Shown: piece by piece, positions 8,394-57,353 of the stretch
Layout of the letters: each line of letters begins with the position of its first letter
Numbering within the stretch: position 1 is the stretch's first letter
Sequence record: OQ561750
Reading direction: 5' to 3' (one strand)
DNA from: Escherichia phage LHE83
Length of the DNA stretch: 64,000 nucleotides
Made by a program: the position numbers and the translations under genes
The notes under the pieces: model-generated
The model's database searches: none
Seen by the model: the letters and a program-made list of their open reading frames with translations, nothing else
Told to the model about the DNA's origin: nothing

Positions 8394-8597
8394 ATGCCTA
8401 AATTAGAGAAAGTAGTGTTTATTGGTTGGTTTGAAAATGGTAATATGTTTACCAAAGAAACCGTTCTGGATGTTAGTGACCAAAATATGATTGAATGGGT
8501 TACAGTGCAGTATGCAGAAGTGAATAATGCGCTGGTGAAAGCCTTTGTTGATGACAATAAAGTTTTTGAGTGTGATTACCGTTCTAACGAAAAATAA
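8394..8597 (+). CDS. hypothetical protein
   Basis: ORF with SD GAGGA. Confidence 0.5.
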   Translation: MPKLEKVVFIGWFENGNMFTKETVLDVSDQNMIEWVTVQYAEVNNALVKAFVDDNKVFECDYRSNEK

Positions 8598-36361: not shown

Positions 36362-39300
36362 TTATAATAATGATTTAATTAATGCTTTCAATTCAGCAAT
36401 TTCAGATTTCAATTCCTTGATTTCGTCAGTATGCTCGTTGATAGTAGCAGTATTTAAACCGATAATACCGTTATAGTTCAAACGAAGTAAGCCAGTCTCT
36501 TTATCTTCAGTCACAAGTTCAGGCAATACTTCTTGAACTTCCTGAGCGATTAAACCTGCGGATGGTTTAACTTCGTCTGTAACAGAGTTTTTAAGCAAAT
36601 AAGTATAACCACCTAAGAGTTTGGATTTCTCTTGAGCGTTATCAATAAGCTTAATTTCCGACTTACAGCGAATATCAGAACGGATATAAACGTCGTTAAC
36701 ATCGATATTATCACGAACATACATCCCGGCGTTAACGTTAAGGGCCACGTTGCCAAATGTCTGAGCAAGTCCGGCTCTAAAACTAAACACACCTTGACCG
36801 TTTGCATGTGCGTTGAAAATACCATCGGATTCCCAGACCAATCCAGTGTCAGCGTCACCAATAGCAATACACGGCGTAGTCCAGGCGGGTTCAACACCGA
36901 CACCAATACCAGCCCAACCAGAAACAATTCTTCCTGGGGAACTAAACTGACCGTTGGCCTTAAATTGATAAACCGCTGCAGGATGACCACTTTCCGGGGT
37001 ATTTTCTGATGAACGGACAATTATACAACCAGTACCCCATTCAGCATTACCACTGCGTAACGAGCCTAGTTCTACGCTTGTGTTATATCCATGCCCTGCT
37101 GAAGAACTTCGCCCTTTAATAATAGGATAGTACACGTTCCCGTTTAATTCGCCGTGTTCTACAAATATAGGGGCTTCAAGACCATACTGCGGGCTAATGG
37201 CACCCGGGTTTTGAGAGACCCATCTTGTGGCATTAACGTACATACGGTTTTCACTCATATTAACCAAACCAAACCCGCCCGGGCTAAATCCGATTGTCCT
37301 GTTATCTGATAAATCAATACCGGTAGTTGTTTTGTAGTTATAAAAAGATACTGAACCGCTTTCACCACCTTTACCAACAAACCAACTATTAGCACCACCA
37401 ACTTCTGAACGAATATGCGAACTATTAGTGGCATTAGGTGCTCTAATTACTAAAGCATCATCGGCCGCAGCAATAGTCAGCTTACCGGTCATCGTGTCGC
37501 CTTCTTTAGCCACACGGGAGGCAATAGCATCATGGATGTTGGTTATATCACCAGCAGAGCTAAATAATTTCCAAATATCAGAGAAGATATTACCATTTCG
37601 AGCAATAGTAGCTTCACCGCCGCCGACCTGTACGTTATCCGGGAAGTTAACTGTACCGTCAGCATTAAATCTTGAGGTATGACCTCCGGTCCCGTCTTCT
37701 TTAAGATGGTGTAAAACAAAAGTCCCGGAATTAATTTCAGTACCTAAAGACCAAACAGCTTTTCCTTGTAAGAATTTTTGCTTAACAATAGGATAATATT
37801 TACTTACTGCGTCATCATCAATTTCTTGGAAAACAGGAGCGGCCTGGGCATATTGAATATCATAACCACCTGCACCTGCACCATGTCCACCGAATTTAAT
37901 ATAGCCGTTTGCTGCAAAAGAAGCATAACTCAAATCTAGGTCAGGAATAACAACCTTACCTGTATCTAAAGCCATACTAAATGGACGGAGTGGGCCTATA
38001 TCACCGGTCATGCCCTCACCAAATGCAGTAGGAATAATGTGAAGACTTCCTTCTGAACGTCTAAAAATGACCCCGTAATCGTTGTTCCAGATGCGGAGCC
38101 CGTTAACAGCATTTGTAGTAATTTCACCAGCGGTGTGGACCGCTCTATCAACCAAAATATCTTTTTTAACAACAAGATTTTCGTTAATAGTTTGTTGCCC
38201 ATTTAATACAGCCTCAATGGTATTATCTTTATTGCGCTGGATATAATGCATCCAACTAATATCATCAGATATTTCCATCACGTTTTTACGAAAGCCATCT
38301 ACTGTATTAAAGGTGTTACCCCATACGGCAATAGACATATTATCAACAGAGCTCTGGCCGGTGGTATAACCTTTAAAAAGCAAAATCGAGTTGTTATTAC
38401 GACCGTCAATATTAACAGAACCACCAACAACATCAATATTACCAGGAGTAACTAACAAACCACCAGCGGTGTTAACGTTTGTAGTACCCTTACCACGGAA
38501 ATAGTGGTGATAATTGCCACCTTGGTAATAACCTAAAAGAGTTTGACCATCACCAAATGCGTTATTATCATGATAAGTAACAACAGTGGCTAATGCATAG
38601 TTTTCCGACGGAGGAGTGGTTAAATCGGTACCGTTTACAGAATAACCCATAACCATTTTTCTAAGACTGGTGGTTTCTGCAGGGCTGTACAGGAAAGTTC
38701 TCGTGCCGTTATTAACGCTGAAATAATATCCATCCTGATGCCATTTTAACCCGGTGTCATTATCGCCAAGAGCAATTGAAGCCGTTCCTAATTCAGAATA
38801 TCCTTTAGAGTTGCCTGGGGTGCCTACAGAAATAGAATGACCGGCTTTCAATCCGCCAGACCAGGTAAACGACCAAAGATAAGCTTCTAAGCCATCGCCG
38901 GCATACCAGGTTATTCCGTCGTTATCTTTAACTTCATGGAAAATGCTCGAACTAACTGCATTTCGCATAACACGAAGGTGGTTAATAGCCGTTTCACTTT
39001 CAGCCAATGGGTTATTATCGGCCATTGAATAGATATCATAATCGCCTGTCTTCTTCCCATTTGTAATAACTTTATCGGTCAGAATTTGTGGAGACGAAAT
39101 AGATTTCCATGCTGATACTTCAGGTGAAGTGAACAAACCATTACCTGAAAATGCATAAGTGCTTTCGCTTGCAGTAGAATAATCTTGTACACGAATATTA
39201 ACTACCTGATTGGTCAAACCTGCATTATTAGGAGAAAAGATAATACCACGCTCACGGTCATCGCCATCAAAGAAACGAAGGTGAGAAGTTGAAGCGCTCT

Positions 39301-39640
39301 TAGAAATAAGTTCGCCACCATGGGTCATTATCTGACCTGCAGCAATAATATCACGAGTTACGCGAGCAATACCGTTGAGATTAAAATCACCAATTTGAGT
39401 AAATACACCATTTAGGGTGTAATCGCCGGTCTGGTTGTAGTTACCGTTATGAATAACATTGCCGTCAATATTACCACCTTTAGCAAAGCCAAGGTCGATA
39501 ATCGCTCCAGTATCGTCTTTAGTAAAAAGTAATCGGTCCTTTAAGTTAATAGCCAGTTCACCTTCAGCCAACTGGGCCGGTGTCGGACGTACACCGGCTA
39601 CTTTACTTCTTTTAAATTGGATTTGCTTTAAAGTAGCCAT
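36362..39640 (-). CDS. 37: long tail fibre distal subunit gp37 with C-terminal intramolecular-chaperone-like domain
   Basis: 1092 aa; conserved N-terminus; C-terminus [13 protein letters not shown]...coiled coil. Confidence 0.9.
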
Positions 39641-47172: not shown

Positions 47173-47822
47173 TTAAGATTCGCATGCCACCAAACAATAA
47201 CCGTATGGTGAATGGTAAGAGCGTATATTCACTATACTTAATGCTCAAACATCACTTCAATGCCAAATACGACGTTATAAAATATAACTGGGTCATGCGA
47301 ATCTCTGATACGGCTTATCAAAAACGTCGTGACAAATATTTCTTTGAGAAATTGAGTGATAAATACACTTTGAAAGAGCTTGCTCTTATCTTCATGAGTA
47401 ACTTGGTGGCTAACCAAGATGCATGGATTGGCGATATCAGTGATGCTGACGCCTTAGTCTTTTACCGAGAATATATCGGTAGACTTAAAAGAATAAAACA
47501 AGTTTTTGAGGATGATATCAAAAACATTTATTATTTTAGTAAGAAAGTGGAAGTTCAAGCGCTTTCTGAAATTTTTGATTATAATAAAAAAGTTAACTCG
47601 AGCTATATTTTTAAGCTCCTTCAATCGAATGTTATTTCATTCGAAACGTTTATTTTGCTTGATTCATTTATGGATATAATTGATAAACATGATGAACAGA
47701 CCAACGATTTAGTGTGGTCTAAGTATTCGACTAAATTAAATGCTTATAAGAAAATTCTTATAATTGATAATTTAGAAGCTCGTAAATTGTTCATCGAAAC
47801 AATTAAGGGTTGCAAATTTTGA
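47169..47822 (+). CDS. 59: helicase loader gp59
   Basis: 217 aa; MIKIRMP...KYDVIKYNW...LVANQDAWIGDISDADALVFYREYIGRLK matches T4 gp59. Confidence 0.9.
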   Translation: MIKIRMPPNNNRMVNGKSVYSLYLMLKHHFNAKYDVIKYNWVMRISDTAYQKRRDKYFFEKLSDKYTLKELALIFMSNLVANQDAWIGDISDADALVFYREYIGRLKRIKQVFEDDIKNIYYFSKKVEVQALSEIFDYNKKVNSSYIFKLLQSNVISFETFILLDSFMDIIDKHDEQTNDLVWSKYSTKLNAYKKILIIDNLEARKLFIETIKGCKF

Positions 47823-47836
47823 ATATAGTTTATAAA

Positions 47837-48454
47837 ATGACTTGGATTAATCGTCAGGCTAATAATATTAAGCCGTTTTCGTACATAGGTTCTAAAACTA
47901 ATTGTACTTTTGAAAATGGCGTGATTATTGACTGTAAAGGTAAAGAGTATTGGACCTCTTGCGAGCAATCAAGATTTAAAGAGGCCATCGAAGAAGAAAA
48001 ACCTATTGTTGAAATTTTGGCTATAACGCCATTTGATATTGTTATTAATATTGAACGTTCAGAACAATTGGAAGTTCAAGCTAGAGATAATGATGATTAT
48101 TTTAATTTGGTTTATGCCGGTGGCGGATTTGGAGTCTTTGGATGCACTCACCCAGCCAAACGTCCTGAAGTTAGAGCCCATATGAAAGCTGCTAACTATA
48201 TGAATCAACCCGATTACCGTCCTTGGAAAACTTCTAGAGCAAACCCTTTAGATTGGATGCTTAGTGATATTGCTTATACTAATTATTGTATAATTAATTC
48301 TAGTGGAAGAGCTTGTGGATGGAGGCGTCTCATTAACTCTGGTATAAATGTTAGTGAAACTACATCAAAGAGTATGATTAAACAATTTAATGAGGGTTGG
48401 GTTCCTAATGATGACCCTGAATTCATTAAGTTAAAAATGCTTTATTCGAAGTGA
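47837..48454 (+). CDS. hypothetical protein in AT-rich insert at the segG position (possible mobile/homing-endonuclease-related gene)
   Basis: Lies between 59 and 32 where T4 has segG; AT-rich; YIGSKT-like motif; no SD. Confidence 0.4.
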   Translation: MTWINRQANNIKPFSYIGSKTNCTFENGVIIDCKGKEYWTSCEQSRFKEAIEEEKPIVEILAITPFDIVINIERSEQLEVQARDNDDYFNLVYAGGGFGVFGCTHPAKRPEVRAHMKAANYMNQPDYRPWKTSRANPLDWMLSDIAYTNYCIINSSGRACGWRRLINSGINVSETTSKSMIKQFNEGWVPNDDPEFIKLKMLYSK

Positions 48455-48552
48455 TATATAATTACTTCATCTTCAAAACCTAGTTATCAAGGTAAACGTG
48501 ATAACAACAACTGTTAATAAATTTATTAAATATATCAAATAAGGTAAATAAT

Positions 48553-49464
48553 ATGTCTATGTTTAAACGCCGTAATCCTGCTGAACTTGCTGCTCAACTG
48601 TCTGCAATGAAAGGCGGCTCTTCTTTCTCGTCTGATGACAAATCCGAATGGAAATTGAAAGATGACAATGGCGTAGGAACCGCAGTTATTCGATTCCTTC
48701 CTTCGAAAAACGAAGCTAATCCATCCCCATTCGTTAAGCTTGTTAACCATGGTTTTAAGAAAAATGGTCAGTGGTATATCGAATCATGTACGTCTACTCA
48801 TGGTGATTTCGATTCATGTCCTGTATGTAAATACATGAACCAGAATGATACCTTTAATACTAATAATGCCGAATACAAACTGATGAAACGTAAAACTTCC
48901 TTCTGGGCTAACATCCTTGTTATTAAGGATAGTGCAGTACCTGCTAACGAAGGTAAAGTGTTTAAATTCCGTTTCGGTCAGAAAATTATGGATAAAATCA
49001 ACCAGATGGTTGAAGTTGATACTGATATTGGTGAAGTGCCGGTTGACGTAACATGTCCGTTTGATGGTGCGAACTTCGTACTGAAATCTAAGAAAGTTGG
49101 CGACTTCAAGAACTACGACGATTCCAAATTCATGGGTCAGTCTGAAATTCCTAACATCAATGATGAAGCTTACCAAGCTAAATTGATGGAAGAAATGCAC
49201 GACCTTTCTAAACTGCTCGATTTCAAATCATTCGAAACTAACGAAGCTAAGTTTAAGAAAGTTGTTGGTACAGCTGCTCTTGGTGGTGCTGCCGCTAAAG
49301 CTTCTGCAGCCGCTGATAAGATTGGTGATGACCTGGACGCATTCAGTGCAGACCTTGATGCATATGACTCCAAACCATCTACACCGACTCGTTCCACTAC
49401 TCCTGAGCCGTCAGTAAGTCCTTCTGATGACGATGGTCTGGACGACCTGTTAGCTGGTCTATAA
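48553..49464 (+). CDS. 32: ssDNA-binding protein gp32
   Basis: [12 protein letters not shown]...VIRFLPSKN...[10 protein letters not shown]...; acidic C-terminus. Confidence 0.95.
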
Positions 49465-49573: not shown

Positions 49574-49963
49574 ATGGAAATCGGTAAAACTTATGAACTT
49601 CGTCCTGAATGCATTAAAGACTTTATTGAAATGGACGAATATGAAAATAATAAAAGCATGGTCAACCTTATCCAAGACAACGGAGGTTGGTTTGAAGTAA
49701 AGGATATGTTGACTATGGATGGCGACAAATTTGTGACTGAAATCGAATGTGCTAACGGCGAGATTTATAATGCATTTGGGTTGGTGCCAAATTATTTTGA
49801 GTTGCATGAAGATGAGTTCTATTGCTTCCGTGAATATGTTGTGGAAGATAAAGAAATCGATGAGCCTATTGCTAAGGCCGGTGTGACTCAAATCCATTGC
49901 ATTGTCACCGAACAGAACGTTGACCAAATCATTGAACTTTTGCAAAAAACTTTTAAGGCCTAA
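49574..49963 (+). CDS. hypothetical protein (frd.x-type), paralog of 50576-50953
   Basis: GKTYEL...YFEL...TQIHC...LLQKTFKA. Confidence 0.55.
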   Translation: MEIGKTYELRPECIKDFIEMDEYENNKSMVNLIQDNGGWFEVKDMLTMDGDKFVTEIECANGEIYNAFGLVPNYFELHEDEFYCFREYVVEDKEIDEPIAKAGVTQIHCIVTEQNVDQIIELLQKTFKA

Positions 49964-50288: not shown

Positions 50289-50516
50289 ATGGCTAAGGTT
50301 AATATTGATATCGTTGATTTTGAATACACTTACGAAGTTATCCGTAATCGTTATCCTTCTTTAGTTATGACCCATATTAAAGATACCCAATTCTGTAGTA
50401 TGCAAATTGAAGTCCAAGGTCCTCTTGAAGACCTTACCCGCTTTATGGCTGACGAGTATTGTGACGGTATGCACCCGGAAGACGCTAAATTTTATATGGG
50501 CTTGATTCAAGCTTAG
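50289..50516 (+). CDS. hypothetical protein
   Basis: SD GAGGA. Confidence 0.5.
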
Positions 50517-50575
50517 TGTACAAACCAACGGGAACATATTATCATGTTCCCTCAATTGAATATGAGGAAATTAAA

Positions 50576-50953
50576 ATGATGGAAACTGGTAAATTTTACG
50601 TATTAGACCCTGCCGCTAAAAAACAATTCATCGCGGGTAGTCCTGATGATAATTATAATTCGTGCATAGTCAAGTTGATGGAACAGCATGGCAATTCCTT
50701 CAAAGTCCTGGATATGTGTTATATTGAAGGCAGTTATTTTGTTGAAAAAGTTGAAATGAAAGATGGTACCATCCTGAATAGTATGGGCGGTGCTGATGAG
50801 TACTTTGAACTCGGTGAATGGGAATTCTGTCACTTCCTGGAAGTTGATGGCGATGTTCCTGATGTTGATACCCAAACCATTCATGTACAAGTCAATCACA
50901 AAAATGCCGCTGAAGTCATTGCCCTGATTAAAGCAACTTTTGATATTCAGTAA
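50576..50953 (+). CDS. hypothetical protein, paralog of 49574-49963
   Basis: GKFYVL...YFEL...TQTIHV...LIKATFDIQ; SD GAGGA. Confidence 0.55.
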   Translation: MMETGKFYVLDPAAKKQFIAGSPDDNYNSCIVKLMEQHGNSFKVLDMCYIEGSYFVEKVEMKDGTILNSMGGADEYFELGEWEFCHFLEVDGDVPDVDTQTIHVQVNHKNAAEVIALIKATFDIQ

Positions 50954-51029
50954 AAAGTAGTATACACCCAAATGGGGCTATGATATAATGGTCCCATACT
51001 GAGATAACAACTAAACACCGGAGAATAAA

Positions 51030-52712
<1,683 letters not shown>

Positions 52713-52840
52713 AAATTCAAATAATCTGTACTCTGTTTTTGGTTATTATGGTCGGACTGAATTTCATTCTATAAATATCAGTCCATGCTTAACAGGTTCT
52801 ATGATAGAATAATTGTAGAACCTAACACATTGAGGAAATT

Positions 52841-55096
52841 ATGCAAGTACAAAAAAGTAGTGGTGTATCCCAAGATTTTGACGCACAAAAAATTATTAAA
52901 GTTCTGACTTGGGGCTGTGAAGGAACCCAAATCGACCCCTATGAATTATACGAAGAAATCAAATCTCACCTTCGTGATGGTATGACTACCAAAGATATCC
53001 AGAATCTGACTGTTAAGGTCGCAGCCAACCTTATTTCGGTTGAAGAACCTGACTATCAGTATGTTGCTGCAAAGCAATTGATGTTTGCACTGCGTAAAGA
53101 AGTTTACGGCCAGTTCGAACCACGTAGCTTTATCGACCATATTTCCTATTGTGTTAACGAAGGTAAATATGACCCTGAATTGTTGTCTCGATATTCTGCA
53201 GAAGAAATTACTTTCTTAGAATCTCATATAAAGCATGAACGCGATTTCGAATTGACTTATGCTGGTGCGATGCAGCTTAAAGAGAAATATCTGGTTAAAG
53301 ATAAAACAACCGGTAAAATCTACGAAACCCCTCAGTTCGCTATCATGTGTATTGGTATGGCCTTACACCAAGACGAGCCAGGTAATCGTTTAGCACATAT
53401 TATTCGTTTTTATGATGCTGTAAGTACCCGTCAGGTTTCATTACCAACTCCTATTATGGCTGGAGCACGTACACCAACCCGTCAATTTAGTTCTTGTGTG
53501 GTTATTGAAGCAGGCGACTCACTGAAATCTATTAACAAAACTGCTAACTCAATAATTGAATACATTTCTAAACGTGCCGGTATTGGTATCAACGTTGGTA
53601 TGATTCGTGCTGAAGGTTCTCGTATTGGCATGGGCGAAGTCAAGCATACCGGTGTTATTCCATTCTGGAAACATTTCCAGACTGCTGTTAAATCATGTTC
53701 ACAAGGTGGAATCCGTGGCGGCGCTGCTACTGCTTATTATCCTATTTGGCATTTGGAAGTTGAAAATCTGCTCGTTCTGAAAAACAACAAAGGTGTCGAT
53801 GAGAACCGTATTCGCCATATGGACTACGGAATCCAGATGAACGACCTTATGATGGAACGTTTCGGTAAAAATGATTACATCACGTTGTTTAGTCCTCATG
53901 AAATGGGTGGTGAGCTTTACTATTCTTATTTCGAAGACCAAGACCGTTTCCGTGAATTGTATGAAGCCGCAGAAAAAGACCCTAGTATTCGTAAGAAACG
54001 TATTAAGGCACGCGACCTTTTCGAATTGTTCATGACTGAACGTTCAGGCACTGCACGAATTTATCCTCAGTTCGTTGATAACACTAACAACTTCACACCA
54101 TTTATTCGTGAAAAAGCTCCTATTCGTCAGAGCAACTTGTGTTGTGAAATTGCTATCCCGACTACTGACGTGAATAGTCCTGACGCTGAAATTGGTTTGT
54201 GTACGTTGTCTGCATTCGTATTGGATAACTTCGATTGGCAGGACCAAGACAAAATCAACGAGCTGGCTGAAGTACAAGTACGTGCACTTGATAACCTGTT
54301 GGACTATCAAGATTATCCTGTTCCTGAAGCTCTGAAGGCTAAGAAACGTCGTAACCTGGGTGTTGGTGTTACGAACTACGCCGCTTGGTTAGCAAGCAAC
54401 TTTGCTTCTTATGAAGACGCTAACGATTTAACTCATGAATTGTTTGAGAGATTACAATATGGACTTATCCGAGCATCCATCAAGCTGGCCGAAGAAAAAG
54501 GACATTGCGAGTATTATTCAGACACTAAATGGTCTCGAGGCGAATTACCTATCGACTGGTACAATAAAAAGATTGACCAAATCGCAGCCCCTAACTATGT
54601 TTGTGACTGGACGTCGTTGCGGGAAGACTTGGCTAAACATGGCATCCGTAATAGCACATTATCAGCACTTATGCCGTGTGAATCAAGCAGCCAGGTTTCC
54701 AACTCTACAAACGGTATCGAACCTCCACGTGGTCCGGTAAGTATTAAAGAATCTAAAGAAGGTAACTTCCGTCAGGTAGTTCCTAATGTAGAACATAACC
54801 AAGGACTCTACGATTACGCTTGGAGCCTCGCTAAGAAAGGTAATAAACCTTATCTTACCCAAGTGGCAATAGCGTTGAAATGGGTGTGTCAATCGGCATC
54901 AGCTAATACATATTATGACCCACAGATTTTTCCAAAAGGAAAAGTTCCGATGTCGGTAATGCTTGACGACCTGCTGTATTTCTGGTACTACGGTGGTAAG
55001 AACCTTTACTATCATAATACCCGTGATGGCTCTGGTACTGATGACTATGAAATCGAAACTCCTAAAGCCGATGATTGTGCAGCTTGTAAATTGTAA
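52841..55096 (+). CDS. nrdA: ribonucleoside-diphosphate reductase alpha subunit
   Basis: 751 aa; ATP-cone, NLCCEI active site. Confidence 0.95.
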   Translation: MQVQKSSGVSQDFDAQKIIKVLTWGCEGTQIDPYELYEEIKSHLRDGMTTKDIQNLTVKVAANLISVEEPDYQYVAAKQLMFALRKEVYGQFEPRSFIDHISYCVNEGKYDPELLSRYSAEEITFLESHIKHERDFELTYAGAMQLKEKYLVKDKTTGKIYETPQFAIMCIGMALHQDEPGNRLAHIIRFYDAVSTRQVSLPTPIMAGARTPTRQFSSCVVIEAGDSLKSINKTANSIIEYISKRAGIGINVGMIRAEGSRIGMGEVKHTGVIPFWKHFQTAVKSCSQGGIRGGAATAYYPIWHLEVENLLVLKNNKGVDENRIRHMDYGIQMNDLMMERFGKNDYITLFSPHEMGGELYYSYFEDQDRFRELYEAAEKDPSIRKKRIKARDLFELFMTERSGTARIYPQFVDNTNNFTPFIREKAPIRQSNLCCEIAIPTTDVNSPDAEIGLCTLSAFVLDNFDWQDQDKINELAEVQVRALDNLLDYQDYPVPEALKAKKRRNLGVGVTNYAAWLASNFASYEDANDLTHELFERLQYGLIRASIKLAEEKGHCEYYSDTKWSRGELPIDWYNKKIDQIAAPNYVCDWTSLREDLAKHGIRNSTLSALMPCESSSQVSNSTNGIEPPRGPVSIKESKEGNFRQVVPNVEHNQGLYDYAWSLAKKGNKPYLTQVAIALKWVCQSASANTYYDPQIFPKGKVPMSVMLDDLLYFWYYGGKNLYYHNTRDGSGTDDYEIETPKADDCAACKL

Positions 55097-55737
55097 TGAA
55101 TTATCAAAAAATCTATAACAACCTAATTTCCCGAGCTCAGGCTCGGGAACCTTTATCTGAATATAAAGAGAATCATCACATAATCCCTAGATGTTTAGGT
55201 GGTTCTGATGATAAGGAAAATCTGGTTTATCTTACTGGGCGCGAGCACTTTATTGCACACTGGCTTCTTACAAAGTTTAATGATTATCCAGGCCTCAACC
55301 AAGCCTTTGGCATGATGTGTCTCACTAATAAAAATAGGCAATATAATGTTTCTTCTAGGTTATACGAAATAGGTAAAAAGCTTTTATCGGAAGCCATGAC
55401 TGGTAAAGAAATGGCTGAAGAGACTAAGAAGAAAATTAGTGAGACTATGAAAGGAAGGGAATTTACCGAAGAGCATTTGGCTCGCATGAGAAAGCCTAAA
55501 ACCGAAGAAGCTAAAAAGAATATAGCTTCTGCCAAAGTTGGTGCGCTTAATCCTATGTATGGTACAATTTCTCCTACAAGAGATGTCCCTCATACTAAAG
55601 AGACATGTGATTTAATTTCTTTGAAGACCAAAGAGAGAACAGACTATCCACCTTGCCCACATTGTGGCAAGAAAGTTAACAAAGGTAATGCTTTAAGATG
55701 GCATTACGATAAATGCAAATTTAAGGATTCTAAATGA
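55096..55737 (+). CDS. mobE: HNH homing endonuclease (MobE-like) with NUMOD-type repeats
   Basis: HHIIPRCLGGSDDKENLVYLTGREHFIAH HNH motif; repeated ...KKNIASAKVG / ETKKKISETMKG; between nrdA and nrdB as T4 mobE. Confidence 0.7.
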   Translation: MNYQKIYNNLISRAQAREPLSEYKENHHIIPRCLGGSDDKENLVYLTGREHFIAHWLLTKFNDYPGLNQAFGMMCLTNKNRQYNVSSRLYEIGKKLLSEAMTGKEMAEETKKKISETMKGREFTEEHLARMRKPKTEEAKKNIASAKVGALNPMYGTISPTRDVPHTKETCDLISLKTKERTDYPPCPHCGKKVNKGNALRWHYDKCKFKDSK

Positions 55738-56912
55738 GTACAGTTTTTAATACCGAACAGGTTGATGTTTTATCAGAACCTATGTTCTTTGGTTCAGGAT
55801 TAGGATTGGCCCGTTATGACATCCAGCGCCATAAAGTATTTGAAGAACTCTGTGAAAAGCAACTCGGATTTTTTTGGAGACCCGAGGAAGTTAACTTGAT
55901 GATGGACGGTGCTCAATTTAATAAGCTTCCACAATTCCAACAAAATATTTTTACCAATAACCTGAAGTATCAATCACTTCTGGATAGTATCCAAGGACGT
56001 GCTCCTTCTGCTGCACTTCAAGCCTTGATTTCAGACCCTAGCCTTGATACATGGGTGGCTACATGGACCTTTAGTGAGACTATTCACTCTCGTTCATATA
56101 CCCATATCATGCGTAACCTCTATACAGACCCGTCAAAGGTATTTGATGAAATTCTGTTAGATGACGCTATTATGAAACGTGCTGAATCTATTGGTCGTTA
56201 TTACGACGACGTTATTGAGAAAACTCGCTATTGGCAGAATGCTAAAGCTGATATCGAATACCAAAAAGAAATTAATGCAGACGAAGACGATATTGAAGAT
56301 GCTATTGAGCATGAGATGTATTGGAAGCGTGAGCTAATGAAATCCCTTTACCTTTGCCTTCATGTAATCAACGCATTGGAAGCTATTCGTTTTTATGTAT
56401 CTTTCGCATGCACCTTTAACTTCCATAAAAACATGGAAATCATGGAAGGTAATGCTAAGATTATGAAGTTCATTGCACGTGATGAACAGCTTCACCTTAA
56501 GGGTACCCAGTACATTATTCGTCAACTTCAACTTGGTACTGATGGTGATGAATGGGTTAAAATTGCTCAAGAGTGTGAACAAGAAGCAGTTGATATTTTC
56601 ATGGAAGTTAACCGTCAAGAAAAAGAATGGGCAGCTCACCTGTTCAAAGATGGTACTTGCCCTGGATTAAATACTCAGAACATGGGTGCTTTTGTCGATT
56701 ACCTGACAGTTTCTCGTATGAAGCAATGTGGCTTACCGTGTCCTATTACCGATGCTCCTGCCCGCCATCCTTATCCTTGGATTCGCGAATACCTGAACTC
56801 TGATGCTGTACAGGCTGCTCCTCAGGAAGTGGAAATCAGTTCTTACCTTGTAGCACAAATTGATAACGATGTCGATGAAAAAGTAATGGCATCGTACAAG
56901 AAATATTTTTAA
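55734..56912 (+). CDS. nrdB: ribonucleoside-diphosphate reductase beta subunit (intron-less)
   Basis: 392 aa; di-iron ligands, continuous ORF. Confidence 0.9.
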   Translation: MSTVFNTEQVDVLSEPMFFGSGLGLARYDIQRHKVFEELCEKQLGFFWRPEEVNLMMDGAQFNKLPQFQQNIFTNNLKYQSLLDSIQGRAPSAALQALISDPSLDTWVATWTFSETIHSRSYTHIMRNLYTDPSKVFDEILLDDAIMKRAESIGRYYDDVIEKTRYWQNAKADIEYQKEINADEDDIEDAIEHEMYWKRELMKSLYLCLHVINALEAIRFYVSFACTFNFHKNMEIMEGNAKIMKFIARDEQLHLKGTQYIIRQLQLGTDGDEWVKIAQECEQEAVDIFMEVNRQEKEWAAHLFKDGTCPGLNTQNMGAFVDYLTVSRMKQCGLPCPITDAPARHPYPWIREYLNSDAVQAAPQEVEISSYLVAQIDNDVDEKVMASYKKYF

Positions 56913-56917
56913 GGAAT

Positions 56918-56931
56918 GGGGCTTCGGCCCC
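56918..56931 (+). other. GGGGC-UUCG-GCCCC hairpin between the SD (AAGGA) and start codon of denA
   Basis: Perfect stem/tetraloop 9 nt upstream of ATG at 56940. Confidence 0.6.
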
Positions 56932-56939
56932 TTATTGCT

Positions 56940-57353
56940 ATGAAAGAAATCGCAGACGAATTTAGCTTTATCAAGTACGTCACCCTAGAACTCCAAGATG
57001 ACGCCAGCATTGCTCCACTCACAGTACCAAATAAACAAAATGTCATATATGCTATAGCGGTTGATGATATACTAGTCTACATCGGGAAGACTAAAAATCT
57101 TCGTAAGCGCATCAACTACTACCGAACCGCTATTAATCGTAAGGACCAAACGTCAGATTCGACCAAGTCCATTCTGATTCATGAAGCATTAATGGCAGGT
57201 AAAAAGGTAGAGTTCTATGCACGGCAGTGCTTTAATCTGTCGATGACTAACGAACTTGGAACTATGTCAGTTGAGACCATGTCTCTTGAAGAGCCAATGT
57301 TCATAAAGAAATTTAATCCACCTTGGAATACCCAACATAGGATAAAGCAATGA
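56940..57353 (+). CDS. denA: endonuclease II (GIY-YIG family)
   Basis: MKEIADEFSFIKY...VIYAIAVDDILVYIGKTKNLRKRINYYR matches T4 EndoII. Confidence 0.85.
   Translation: MKEIADEFSFIKYVTLELQDDASIAPLTVPNKQNVIYAIAVDDILVYIGKTKNLRKRINYYRTAINRKDQTSDSTKSILIHEALMAGKKVEFYARQCFNLSMTNELGTMSVETMSLEEPMFIKKFNPPWNTQHRIKQ

Follow-up and report, generated by a model that had tools for sequence, protein, structure and literature searches.

A T6-type mobE gene between nrdA and nrdB of the Dhakavirus LHE83 and the probable recombination scar of its arrival

In the 64,000-nt stretch of the Escherichia phage LHE83 genome analysed here (the window; GenBank OQ561750), an intact open reading frame of 213 amino acids lies between nrdA and nrdB (55096-55737, + strand, 642 bp, ATG start). 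We consider it, with good confidence, to be a functional ortholog of the mobE genes of phages T4 and T6, encoding a predicted nuclease in a Dhakavirus-type genome. The same explanation, held with the same confidence, includes that the flanking DNA still bears the recombination scar of the gene's arrival, and parsimony together with the known biology of the element suggests that the exchange was a gain in LHE83 rather than a replacement in its relatives. LHE83 is a Dhakavirus with a genome of 170,464 bp.

The assignment of the ORF as a T6-type free-standing HNH homing endonuclease gene draws on domain matches, on homologs in protein collections and on its pattern of substitution. The product matches PHROG 655 ('homing endonuclease') with E 4e-63 and the Pfam HNH family PF01844 with 23.7 bits, above the cut-off of 21.4. 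Its top matches in the protein collection are T6-type MobE proteins, at 80-82% amino acid identity and 100% coverage, while T4 MobE is 74% identical with an insertion on the T4 side. Full-length orthology and the nrdA/nrdB location support the ORF as a genuine ortholog of MobE, located where T4 and T6 carry mobE and where the initial annotation, made from the letters alone, had placed a free-standing endonuclease; an assignment to Hef was dropped, the ORF being a full-length MobE ortholog. With a dN/dS of 0.03-0.14 for the gene and of 0.06-0.12 for residues 1-62, which include the HNH domain, the whole protein appears to be under purifying selection. The GenBank entry for the protein (WEY10237.1, 100% identical) is annotated 'homing endonuclease', and homing endonucleases go unmentioned in the LHE83 paper (PMC10987938).

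The catalytic motif HHIIPRCLGGSDDKENLVYLTGREHFIAH spans residues 27-55 (H27 H28 ... N42 ... H51 ... H55; 55174-55260, +), and these five residues are invariant across 38-39 homologs down to an identity of 39%, so that the clear HNH motif noted initially is borne out, with none of its residues missing on alignment. Since a single-sequence phmmer search against the PDB gave only a marginal match (E 0.24), a profile search was needed to reach HNH domains there; the MobE family profile then found the HNH domains of McrA (6ghc, E 5e-4) and of a group II intron maturase. An AF2 model of this part of the protein places strands at 25-28 and 43-46 and a helix at 48-61. Further along, residues ~101-156 (55396-55563, +) form a region in which GKEMAEETKKKIS-type units (G-x-E-E-T-K-x-K-I-S) are visible. 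The initial description of C-terminal NUMOD-like repeats holds in so far as these units are present and homologs carry faint precomputed PF07460 matches, but the LHE83 protein itself scores 18.2 bits against NUMOD3 (PF07460), short of the gathering cut-off of 20.4; the repeats thus resemble NUMOD3 with no qualifying match, and the region is presumed to be a DNA-binding module. Close to the C-terminus lies a CPxC-x12-H-x3-C motif (C187 P188 C190 H203 C207; 55654-55716, +), again invariant in all 38-39 homologs. Searched as a profile against the PDB, it shows a weak and non-significant likeness to zinc-finger and zinc-ribbon structures, and we regard it as a putative zinc-binding DNA-contact element.

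The gene is tightly interlocked with its neighbours. Upstream, nrdA (751 aa, 52841-55096, +; Pfam ATP-cone, Ribonuc_red_lgN and Ribonuc_red_lgC) ends in the TAATGA at 55094-55099 in which its stop overlaps the mobE start, exactly as first noted, and the mobE stop in turn overlaps the ATG of nrdB through an ATGA. Both nrdB (392 aa, 55734-56912, +; Ribonuc_red_sm), the MobE target gene, and td (285 aa, 51855-52712, +; Thymidylat_synt matched over 1-266 of 266 in a single stretch) are intron-less single ORFs, and nrdA is likewise continuous. No RNA family, and hence no group I intron, was found by Rfam at gathering thresholds in the whole 64 kb. The earlier reading of td and nrdB as intron-less thus stands, and the intron-encoded arrangement of the I-TevI/I-TevIII type is not what is seen here. 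That mobE is the only mobile-element signature is true within frd-td-nrdA-nrdB-denA, where no other homing-endonuclease ORF was found; it is slightly overstated for the wider region, where a second free-standing homing-endonuclease-like ORF is found at 47810-48454, 3.4 kb upstream of td (phrog_7504, E 4.5e-113). It represents an endonuclease cassette of sporadic occurrence, situated between genes 59 and 32. Other cassettes are seen elsewhere in the group: IME281 has an extra endonuclease-cassette ORF between denA and rnlA, and Bp7 has an nrdB intron with I-TevIII. The GIY-YIG gene denA (56916-57353) was examined as a possible further mobile element, but it encodes the conserved endonuclease II found in every relative and was set aside.

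Among close relatives the presence of mobE is sporadic, which is the distribution of a mobile element and not that of a gene occupying the identical site in all relatives. QL01, IME281, MX01, KIT01, AnYang, JS98 and Bp7 have an nrdA-nrdB spacer of 52-54 bp with no mobE (six mobE-less Dhakaviruses were fetched and read in detail). Of a 3.5-kb query across the locus, the top Dhakavirus records, whose flanks are 94-98% identical, cover only 81%; mobE is likewise missing from the other top Dhakavirus matches, and no Dhakavirus name occurs among the mobE matches in the phage collection. The gene is present in the metagenomic contigs L099-L108 and L087, and at least 35 collection blocks contain the Dhakavirus-type MobE protein (P0122). 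Clades of mobE roughly track genera, with LHE83, the L099-type contigs and L087 constituting the Dhakavirus-associated one. A recent arrival from Tequatrovirus was rejected, since the identity of the gene to T6-type copies is only ~80% and does not exceed that of the flanking genes.

Comparison of the nrdA-nrdB junction with relatives lacking the ORF, suggested initially as a check, gave a short spacer in those relatives and, in LHE83, divergent tracts with sharp limits to the left and right of the insertion. Over ~1.8 kb of nrdA (53149-54966) LHE83 is 100% identical to QL01/IME281, and the last 130 nt of the gene then hold 5 mismatches to IME281. On this side the junction falls within 55049-55095 (+), as judged from the alleles of IME281, QL01, MX01 and L099-type contigs: at 55033 and 55048 LHE83 agrees with IME281 and the L099-type contigs differ, while at 55090, 55091 and 55093 it agrees with the L099-type contigs and IME281, QL01 and MX01 differ. 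Through the last three changes LHE83 lacks the AAGCTTTA box found in the mobE-less allele. On the other side, the 5' end of nrdB carries a putative co-conversion tract (55738-55912, +), delimited by mismatches to QL01 and to the mobE-containing contigs. The mismatches to QL01 nrdB are concentrated in nt 4-176 (35 of 42; P ~1e-22) and are followed by none for ~590 nt. Contigs L099-L108 match LHE83 mobE at 632 of 642 nt, and L099-L101 and L103-L107 have no mismatch to LHE83 over nrdB nt 1-176. Since these contigs are identical through nt 176 and diverge from 55913 onwards, their first mismatch, the crossover is bracketed at 55910-55912. The imported segment would thus measure ~820-860 bp, from ~55049-55089 to 55909-55912, comprising mobE with ~180-225 nt of flanks in a local backbone that is otherwise 100% that of mobE-less QL01/IME281. 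At 54967 and 55072 LHE83 is unlike every compared genome, and the exact donor is therefore not among them; a scan of IMG/VR for relatives returned nothing above 55% identity, leaving the donor absent there, and an exact-protein look-up in the contig index gave no match. The right edge of the tract falls at 55909-55913 in MX01, L102 and L099-type backbones alike, and what is seen there may be an old boundary between haplotypes instead of a set of separate repair end-points.

These positions can be set against the target site known from T4. The nick made by T4 MobE was mapped in T2 nrdB at nt 122-126, and in T4 x T2 crosses three of four mobE+ I-TevIII- progeny had recombined inside the first 189 nt of nrdB (PMC2790892). 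Aligned to the T2 site, nt 122-126 correspond to 55855-55859 in LHE83 (within 55840-55880, +), and the right crossover lies ~52 nt past this position; the LHE83 junctions agree with the recombination interval of the laboratory progeny. The mobE-less T2, QL01, IME281, AnYang and JS98 share GAAAAGCAGTTG at the nick site, with GAGAAGCAGTTG in KIT01, and in all six mobE+ genomes the site or the sequence just 3' of it is altered. The LHE83 allele is GAAAAGCAACTCGGA, encoding S44G, and the substitutions leading from QL01-type to LHE83-type nrdB turn CAGTTGAGT into CAACTCGGA. Presumably, this allele is resistant to MobE.

MX01 is mobE-less and has an empty spacer, yet carries the target-site allele of LHE83 (nt 49-176 identical). 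One could speculate, as a tentative possibility, that the mobE-linked nrdB haplotype sometimes moves without the endonuclease gene, MobE nicking itself driving short gene conversions from which endonuclease-free and presumably resistant nrdB alleles arise. If so, such short conversions would diversify the NrdB region beside an essential Trp, S44G being an example, and the homing cycle, from invasion through resistance to loss, could be seen in nature at all these stages within a single phage genus.

The same MX01 allele could also be a post-loss remnant, as would fit an exchange of reverse polarity, in which mobE is ancestral to this Dhakavirus lineage and QL01, IME281 and others acquired the mobE-less spacer and the QL01-type nrdB 5' end by recombination. 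The frequency of the Dhakavirus-type clade in metagenomes and the rough correspondence between clades and genera, suggestive of long residence in each gene pool, can be read in this way too. We nevertheless find this history unlikely, because LHE83, which differs at 0-1 positions in the ~1.8 kb of nrdA, nests within the QL01/IME281 group and does not branch outside it, and all Dhakavirus records examined are without mobE, so that loss would require mobE to have been replaced several times unless LHE83 is basal. We know of no drive toward mobE loss comparable to the one that favours its gain. MobE drives its own gain, its inheritance in crosses exceeding 95% (PMC2790892).

A gain could in principle also have come about with no break made by MobE, the cassette being exchanged through ordinary homologous recombination between the conserved nrdA and nrdB flanks in the manner of T4-like mosaicism. 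The region is generally mosaic, with divergence patches in td, frd and gene 32, and ordinary recombination could therefore contribute; patches with no relation to mobE lie nearby in td, in frd and in nrdA (52966-53110), accompanied by indels at 50510-51020 and 52767. As a full account of the arrival, however, it appears very unlikely, given that the junctions sit tightly on the cassette (no more than 47 nt away on the left and 176-179 nt away on the right) and that the right tract both covers the experimentally mapped nick position and repeats the recombination interval of the MobE-dependent laboratory progeny. Homing by MobE remains our preferred explanation.

Expression of the gene appears to be constrained in the way known from T4. 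No Shine-Dalgarno sequence was seen upstream of mobE and no sigma-70-like site was detected by a scan of 55000-55096; mobE is probably co-transcribed with nrdA and translationally coupled to it. Inside the ORF a terminator scan found a hairpin with a 9-bp stem and a 4-nt loop followed by CCUUUAUCU (55128-55158, +; stem and loop 55128-55149), the stem starting 32 nt after the A of the mobE AUG, with a fold energy of -19.1 kcal/mol (z -4.3). Its sequence is that of T4/T6, and in L087 and L088 the pairing is preserved despite changes; in T4 the hairpin terminates ~30-50% of transcripts (PMC2790892). At the 3' end of mobE (55689-55727, +), motif conservation points to putative nrdB expression signals: TGCTTTA, resembling a MotA box (55689-55695), followed after 12 nt by the -10-like GATAAAT (55708-55714), and a Shine-Dalgarno AAGGA (55723-55727). 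The MotA-box-like and -10-like elements are common to T4, T6 and L087, and are not conserved in L088, the Gaprivervirus copy. In T4 the nrdB middle promoter is situated in the 3' region of mobE (PMC2790892), and we infer a putative promoter and Shine-Dalgarno for nrdB in LHE83.

By homology to T4, mobE would have no promoter of its own and would be transcribed from nrdA transcripts, its translation being kept low by termination-reinitiation at the UAAUGA and its expression damped further by the weak terminator hairpin, with the promoter-like and Shine-Dalgarno signals in the 3' end restoring that of nrdB. Repair of a nicked nrdB off a mobE+ genome would copy mobE plus short flanks, and the substitutions at or beside the target site would protect the carrier's own nrdB. 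That the ORF is instead a domesticated or inactive relic, no longer mobile and kept for the nrdB expression signals it carries or for some other role in the phage, seems hardly credible: the T4 nrdB middle promoter inside mobE has been argued to select against deletion and in vitro cleavage by T4 MobE was never demonstrated (PMC2790892), but purifying selection extends to every part of the protein, the HNH domain among them, every catalytic residue is invariant, and the patchy distribution, fresh conversion tract and target-site substitutions are what an active element would be expected to produce.

In vivo evidence exists for few free-standing HNH homing endonucleases; for MobE it was obtained in laboratory T4 x T2 crosses. 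LHE83 provides a natural counterpart of these crosses, forming a near-isogenic pair with QL01/IME281 in which the import is bounded within a few nucleotides, and the QL01/IME281 alleles, as sensitive substrates, and the LHE83/MX01 alleles, as putatively resistant ones, are at hand for mapping what MobE recognises. Dhakaviruses, in which mobE circulates, are in use as therapeutic and biocontrol phages.

Compared with the MobE literature on T4 and T6 (Wilson & Edgell 2009, PMC2790892; Edgell et al. 2010, PMC2988022), the LHE83 gene illustrates a known mechanism cleanly in nature and is no new element type. It is ~82% identical in amino acids to T6-type MobE, and with T6 it shares the length of 213 aa and 642 bp, the nrdA/nrdB locus and the UAAUGA and ATGA overlaps, and with both T6 and T4 an identical terminator hairpin sequence, an identical stretch of the last 31 residues, including CPHC...H...C, and a target-site polymorphism in nrdB around nt 122-135. 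It differs from them in its backbone, Dhakavirus rather than Tequatrovirus, in a nucleotide divergence of ~20%, in belonging to a separate, Dhakavirus-associated mobE clade, and in having no neighbouring nrdB intron or I-TevIII to trans-mobilise. T4 MobE, at 232 aa, is 19 residues longer owing to an insertion in the repeat region, where the alignment also contains a 2-residue gap. The mobE genes of the Gaprivervirus P479 and of contig L088 have the same locus, length and overlaps as the LHE83 copy, to which they are 86% identical in amino acids and 80.5% in nucleotides, but form a distinct genus-level clade. I-TevIII, found in the nrdB group I intron of T4/RB3 and in Bp7, resembles MobE in its HNH family, nrdB target and gene cluster; it is encoded by an intron inside nrdB, whereas the LHE83 ORF is free-standing and has no intron.

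The ORF that we examined between nrdA and nrdB of Escherichia phage LHE83 (55096-55737, + strand; 213 aa, with an ATG start in both the ORF listing and the raw sequence) overlaps the nrdA stop by one base in TAATGA (55094-55099), so that two in-frame stops close nrdA, as in T4, and its own stop overlaps the nrdB start in ATGA (55734-55737). Together with td (51855-52712, 285 aa, covering the full Thymidylat_synt profile, 1-266/266), nrdA (52841-55096, 751 aa), nrdB (55734-56912, 392 aa), denA (56916-57353, GIY-YIG, PHROG 1111) and the neighbouring rnlA, it forms a cluster; the locus is co-linear with T6 and T4, and the initial annotation was right in placing it at the mobE position of T4 with its ATG overlapping the nrdA stop. 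Since Rfam at gathering thresholds matched no family anywhere in the 64 kb, td and nrdB are intron-less, as had been claimed.

The product carries the HNH motif that had been noticed (residues 27-55), and the domain scores 23.7 bits in Pfam, above the gathering score of 21.4; the NUMOD-like repeats proposed alongside it were not upheld by Pfam, where NUMOD3 reached 18.2 bits, under the gathering score of 20.4. The protein matches PHROG 655 “homing endonuclease” (E 4e-63), and, in the PDB, the family profile finds the HNH domains of two proteins, McrA (6ghc, E 5e-4) and a group II intron maturase. Fold searches with a full-length AF2 model returned nothing informative. Residues H27, H28, N42, H51 and H55, whose presence was to be checked by alignment, are invariant among 38-39 homologs down to 39% identity, as is a C-terminal motif, C187-P188-x-C190...H203...C207. 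Against four other mobE copies, dN/dS (Nei-Gojobori) is 0.03-0.14 and stays low whichever third of the protein is considered; mobE is an intact gene under selection, and the view that it is a domesticated relic is a less likely one.

A 3.5-kb query spanning the locus matched Dhakaviruses (including IME281, FB, QL01, PSD9, ABTNLS3, WG01, MX01, E33, KIT01, UGJNEcP3/4, IME540, Bp7, C6 and AnYang) at 94-98% identity over only 81% of its length, the uncovered part being mobE. The comparison of nrdA-nrdB junctions suggested at the outset revealed a 52-54 bp spacer in place of mobE in the six relatives fetched (QL01, IME281, MX01, KIT01, AnYang and JS98) and in Bp7. Within Dhakavirus, mobE is a minority allele. 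In the phage collection, the top full-length matches, in T6 and other Tequatroviruses, reach about 81% identity, mobE of the Gaprivervirus P479 is 80.5% identical, and an IMG/VR search found distant relatives only. In the larger protein collection, the cluster of the window's MobE includes, besides the LHE83 protein, numerous variants from metagenomes; one of them, P0122, differs by a single residue and is indexed in at least 35 blocks. The mobE copies form three groups by host genus (T6-type; P479 with the metagenomic contig L088; and the window with the metagenomic contigs L099-L108 and a further copy, L087), and the divergence between these clades is about that of the flanking genes. From this grouping, the flank-like divergence and the pattern of presence, mobE has therefore long been resident in several Tevenvirinae gene pools.

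An ungapped comparison of the window with QL01 and IME281 delimits the footprint of the element. The window is 100% identical to both in nrdA at about 53149-54966 and in nrdB at 55910-56500, and of its 42 mismatches to QL01 in nrdB, 35 lie within nt 4-176 (55737-55909; binomial P ~1e-22); IME281 has five mismatches in the final 130 nt of nrdA. Contigs L099-L108, with 10 differences to the window over the 642 nt of mobE, share its nrdB nt 1-176 exactly in L099-L101 and L103-L107 and with one difference in L102. Because the last mismatch to QL01 lies at 55909 and the first to the mobE-bearing contigs at 55913 (55910 in L102), we place the right crossover in 55910-55912 (nrdB nt 177-179). The left junction falls in 55049-55089, since the window still has the bases of IME281 at 55033 and 55048 and already has those of the contigs at 55090-55093. 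The imported segment, about 820-860 bp long, consists of mobE flanked by no more than 47 nt of nrdA on one side and by 176-179 nt of nrdB on the other. The window has bases of its own at 54967 and 55072, and its mobE differs from the L099 type by 1.6%; the donor was a relative of these contigs and none of them itself.

Gain of mobE by homing is the favoured explanation, since at this locus the window is nested inside the QL01/IME281 group, mobE is missing from the isolates examined, and MobE has a known ability to skew inheritance in its own favour. That mobE is ancestral and the relatives had their region replaced, which its long residence in Tevenvirinae might accommodate, is less likely given this nesting; also less likely is recombination without a nuclease in a generally mosaic region. 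As a separate matter, frd and td (51400-52800) contain patches of 64-90% identity to QL01 and MX01 in genes otherwise 95-100% identical (for example 52052-52152 and 52552-52642, td being one codon shorter); the ancestry of these genes is mosaic, independently of mobE.

In T2, MobE-dependent nicking was located on the non-coding strand at nrdB nt 122-126 (PMC2790892). The equivalent site in the window, 55855-55859, is part of the tract and lies about 52 nt short of the right crossover. Target alleles split by mobE status: the mobE-less T2, QL01, IME281, AnYang and JS98, from two genera, have GAAAAG|CAGTTG(AGT/TCA)TT(T/C)TTCTGGCG, and KIT01, also mobE-less, differs by one base inside the nick pentamer (AGAAG), while all six mobE-bearing genomes (window, L087, P479, L088, T6 and T4) have substitutions in the pentamer itself or in the 12 nt that follow it on the 3' side. 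The expected reading, which we infer, is self-immunity of mobE-bearing genomes through variation of the target site. The window's nick region, CAACTCGGATTTTTTTGGAGA, codes for S44G beside the conserved FFW (codon 44, 55863-55865, in LSFFWRPEEV), the neighbouring Trp having been described as functionally critical (PMC2790892); S44G belongs to the mobE-linked haplotype, which the window has in common with MX01 and with contigs of the L099 type, and among 14 genomes compared it is missing from the ten other nrdB sequences. In mobE-less Bp7 (L096 2652-4917), nrdB is interrupted by an intron-like insertion with an ORF annotated I-TevIII, and the MobE-site region is partly changed (CAACTATCA).

MX01 lacks mobE and has a spacer and nrdB nt 1-48 of QL01 type, yet its nrdB nt 49-176 (L092 2996-3171; window 55782-55909) matches the window at 128/128 positions, compared with 104-105/128 for QL01 and IME281, in a backbone elsewhere 2-3% diverged. 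This fits MobE-initiated repair that converted the target region alone, and it fits later loss of mobE through a crossover between nt 48 and the cassette. Either way, a mobE-linked, presumably resistant nrdB allele circulates without the endonuclease, and the MX01 tract is a candidate for such an allele.

Other sites in the window and its relatives are polymorphic as well. A second free-standing homing-endonuclease-like ORF (47810-48454, + strand, 214 aa; phrog_7504, E 4.5e-113; no Pfam match) lies between genes 59 and 32; it is missing in QL01 and 99.5-99.8% identical in MX01, Bp7, FB, IME540, AnYang and PSD2002. The adjoining gene 32 5' end (flank 48400-48800), 71-86% identical to QL01 and 99% to MX01, looks like another co-conversion tract. 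The denA/rnlA junction is a further polymorphic endonuclease site in the same cluster: IME281 (L001 5764-6414) and contig L102 (2356-3006) have a 216-aa ORF there (phrog_314 “homing endonuclease”, E 4e-16) that is missing from the window (57337-57350), QL01 and MX01. A ~293-bp nrdA.1 (DUF4326) between td and nrdA in QL01, IME281, JS98, KIT01 and Bp7 is missing in the window (~52767), whose short 128-bp spacer (52713-52840) recurs in MX01 and AnYang. Segment 50510-51020 (~510 bp), lacking in QL01 and MX01, carries the gene for a second FRD2-family protein (50516-50953, PF03197, E 8e-32) besides the frd.2 homolog at 49574-49963. Relative to QL01, the window lacks ~475 nt at ~59852 (QL01_227 homolog) and ~188 nt at ~61057, has a replaced segment near dmd (8414-8591), and is strongly diverged in the distal tail-fibre and adhesin genes (36559-39394).

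T4 mobE lacks a promoter and is transcribed together with nrdA, has a weak intrinsic terminator 27 nt past its AUG, and holds the nrdB middle promoter in its 3' region (Wilson & Edgell, PMC2790892); the UAAUGA overlap suggests translational coupling (Edgell et al., PMC2988022). The sequence correlates of this regulation all appear to be present in the window. A terminator-like hairpin (55128-55149; 9-bp stem, 4-nt loop, then CCUUUAUCU) has the same sequence in T4/T6, and its pairing is maintained in the diverged L087 and L088 by a G-U pair and compensatory changes. The final 50 nt of mobE contain a MotA-box-like TGCTTTA (55689-55695), a -10-like element (55708-55714) and an AAGGA Shine-Dalgarno for nrdB (55723-55727); the box is kept in T4, T6 and L087 but not in L088, and the nrdB promoter assigned here is for that reason putative. 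In mobE-less relatives, a AAGCTTTA box, a 12-nt gap and TATAAT span the nrdA stop, and the window's substitutions at 55090, 55091 and 55093 abolish the box and preserve the Lys-Leu codons. The mobE-less spacers of Dhakaviruses (QL01, L002 4098-4150) and T2 (L091 4115-4165) have in common an 8-bp inverted repeat, TTGACTCATGG(A/C)(T/C)GAGTCA, without a U-tract and conserved across genera.

The element is a Dhakavirus clade of mobE whose protein is already deposited under a generic annotation: it is 100% identical to WEY10237.1, labelled “homing endonuclease”, from LHE83 (OQ561750), a 170,464-bp Dhakavirus whose paper leaves homing endonucleases out of its discussion (PMC10987938). To a specialist it will be no surprise; what it adds is a natural footprint at base level and a series of sensitive and apparently resistant alleles. 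As far as sequence can tell, it has all the defining features of MobE, and nicking and super-Mendelian inheritance would be expected by analogy with the T4 enzyme. The closest matches in the protein collection are T6-type MobE (80-82% aa); T6 mobE is likewise 642 bp, with a one-base nrdA overlap and a four-base nrdB overlap, and its product aligns without gaps and is identical over the final 31 residues, whereas the main differences in T4 MobE are confined to the repeat region, where it has a 19-residue insertion and a 2-residue gap. In T4 x T2 crosses, the recombination point lay in the first 189 nt of nrdB in 3/4 mobE+ I-TevIII- progeny (PMC2790892), the same tract geometry as in the window.
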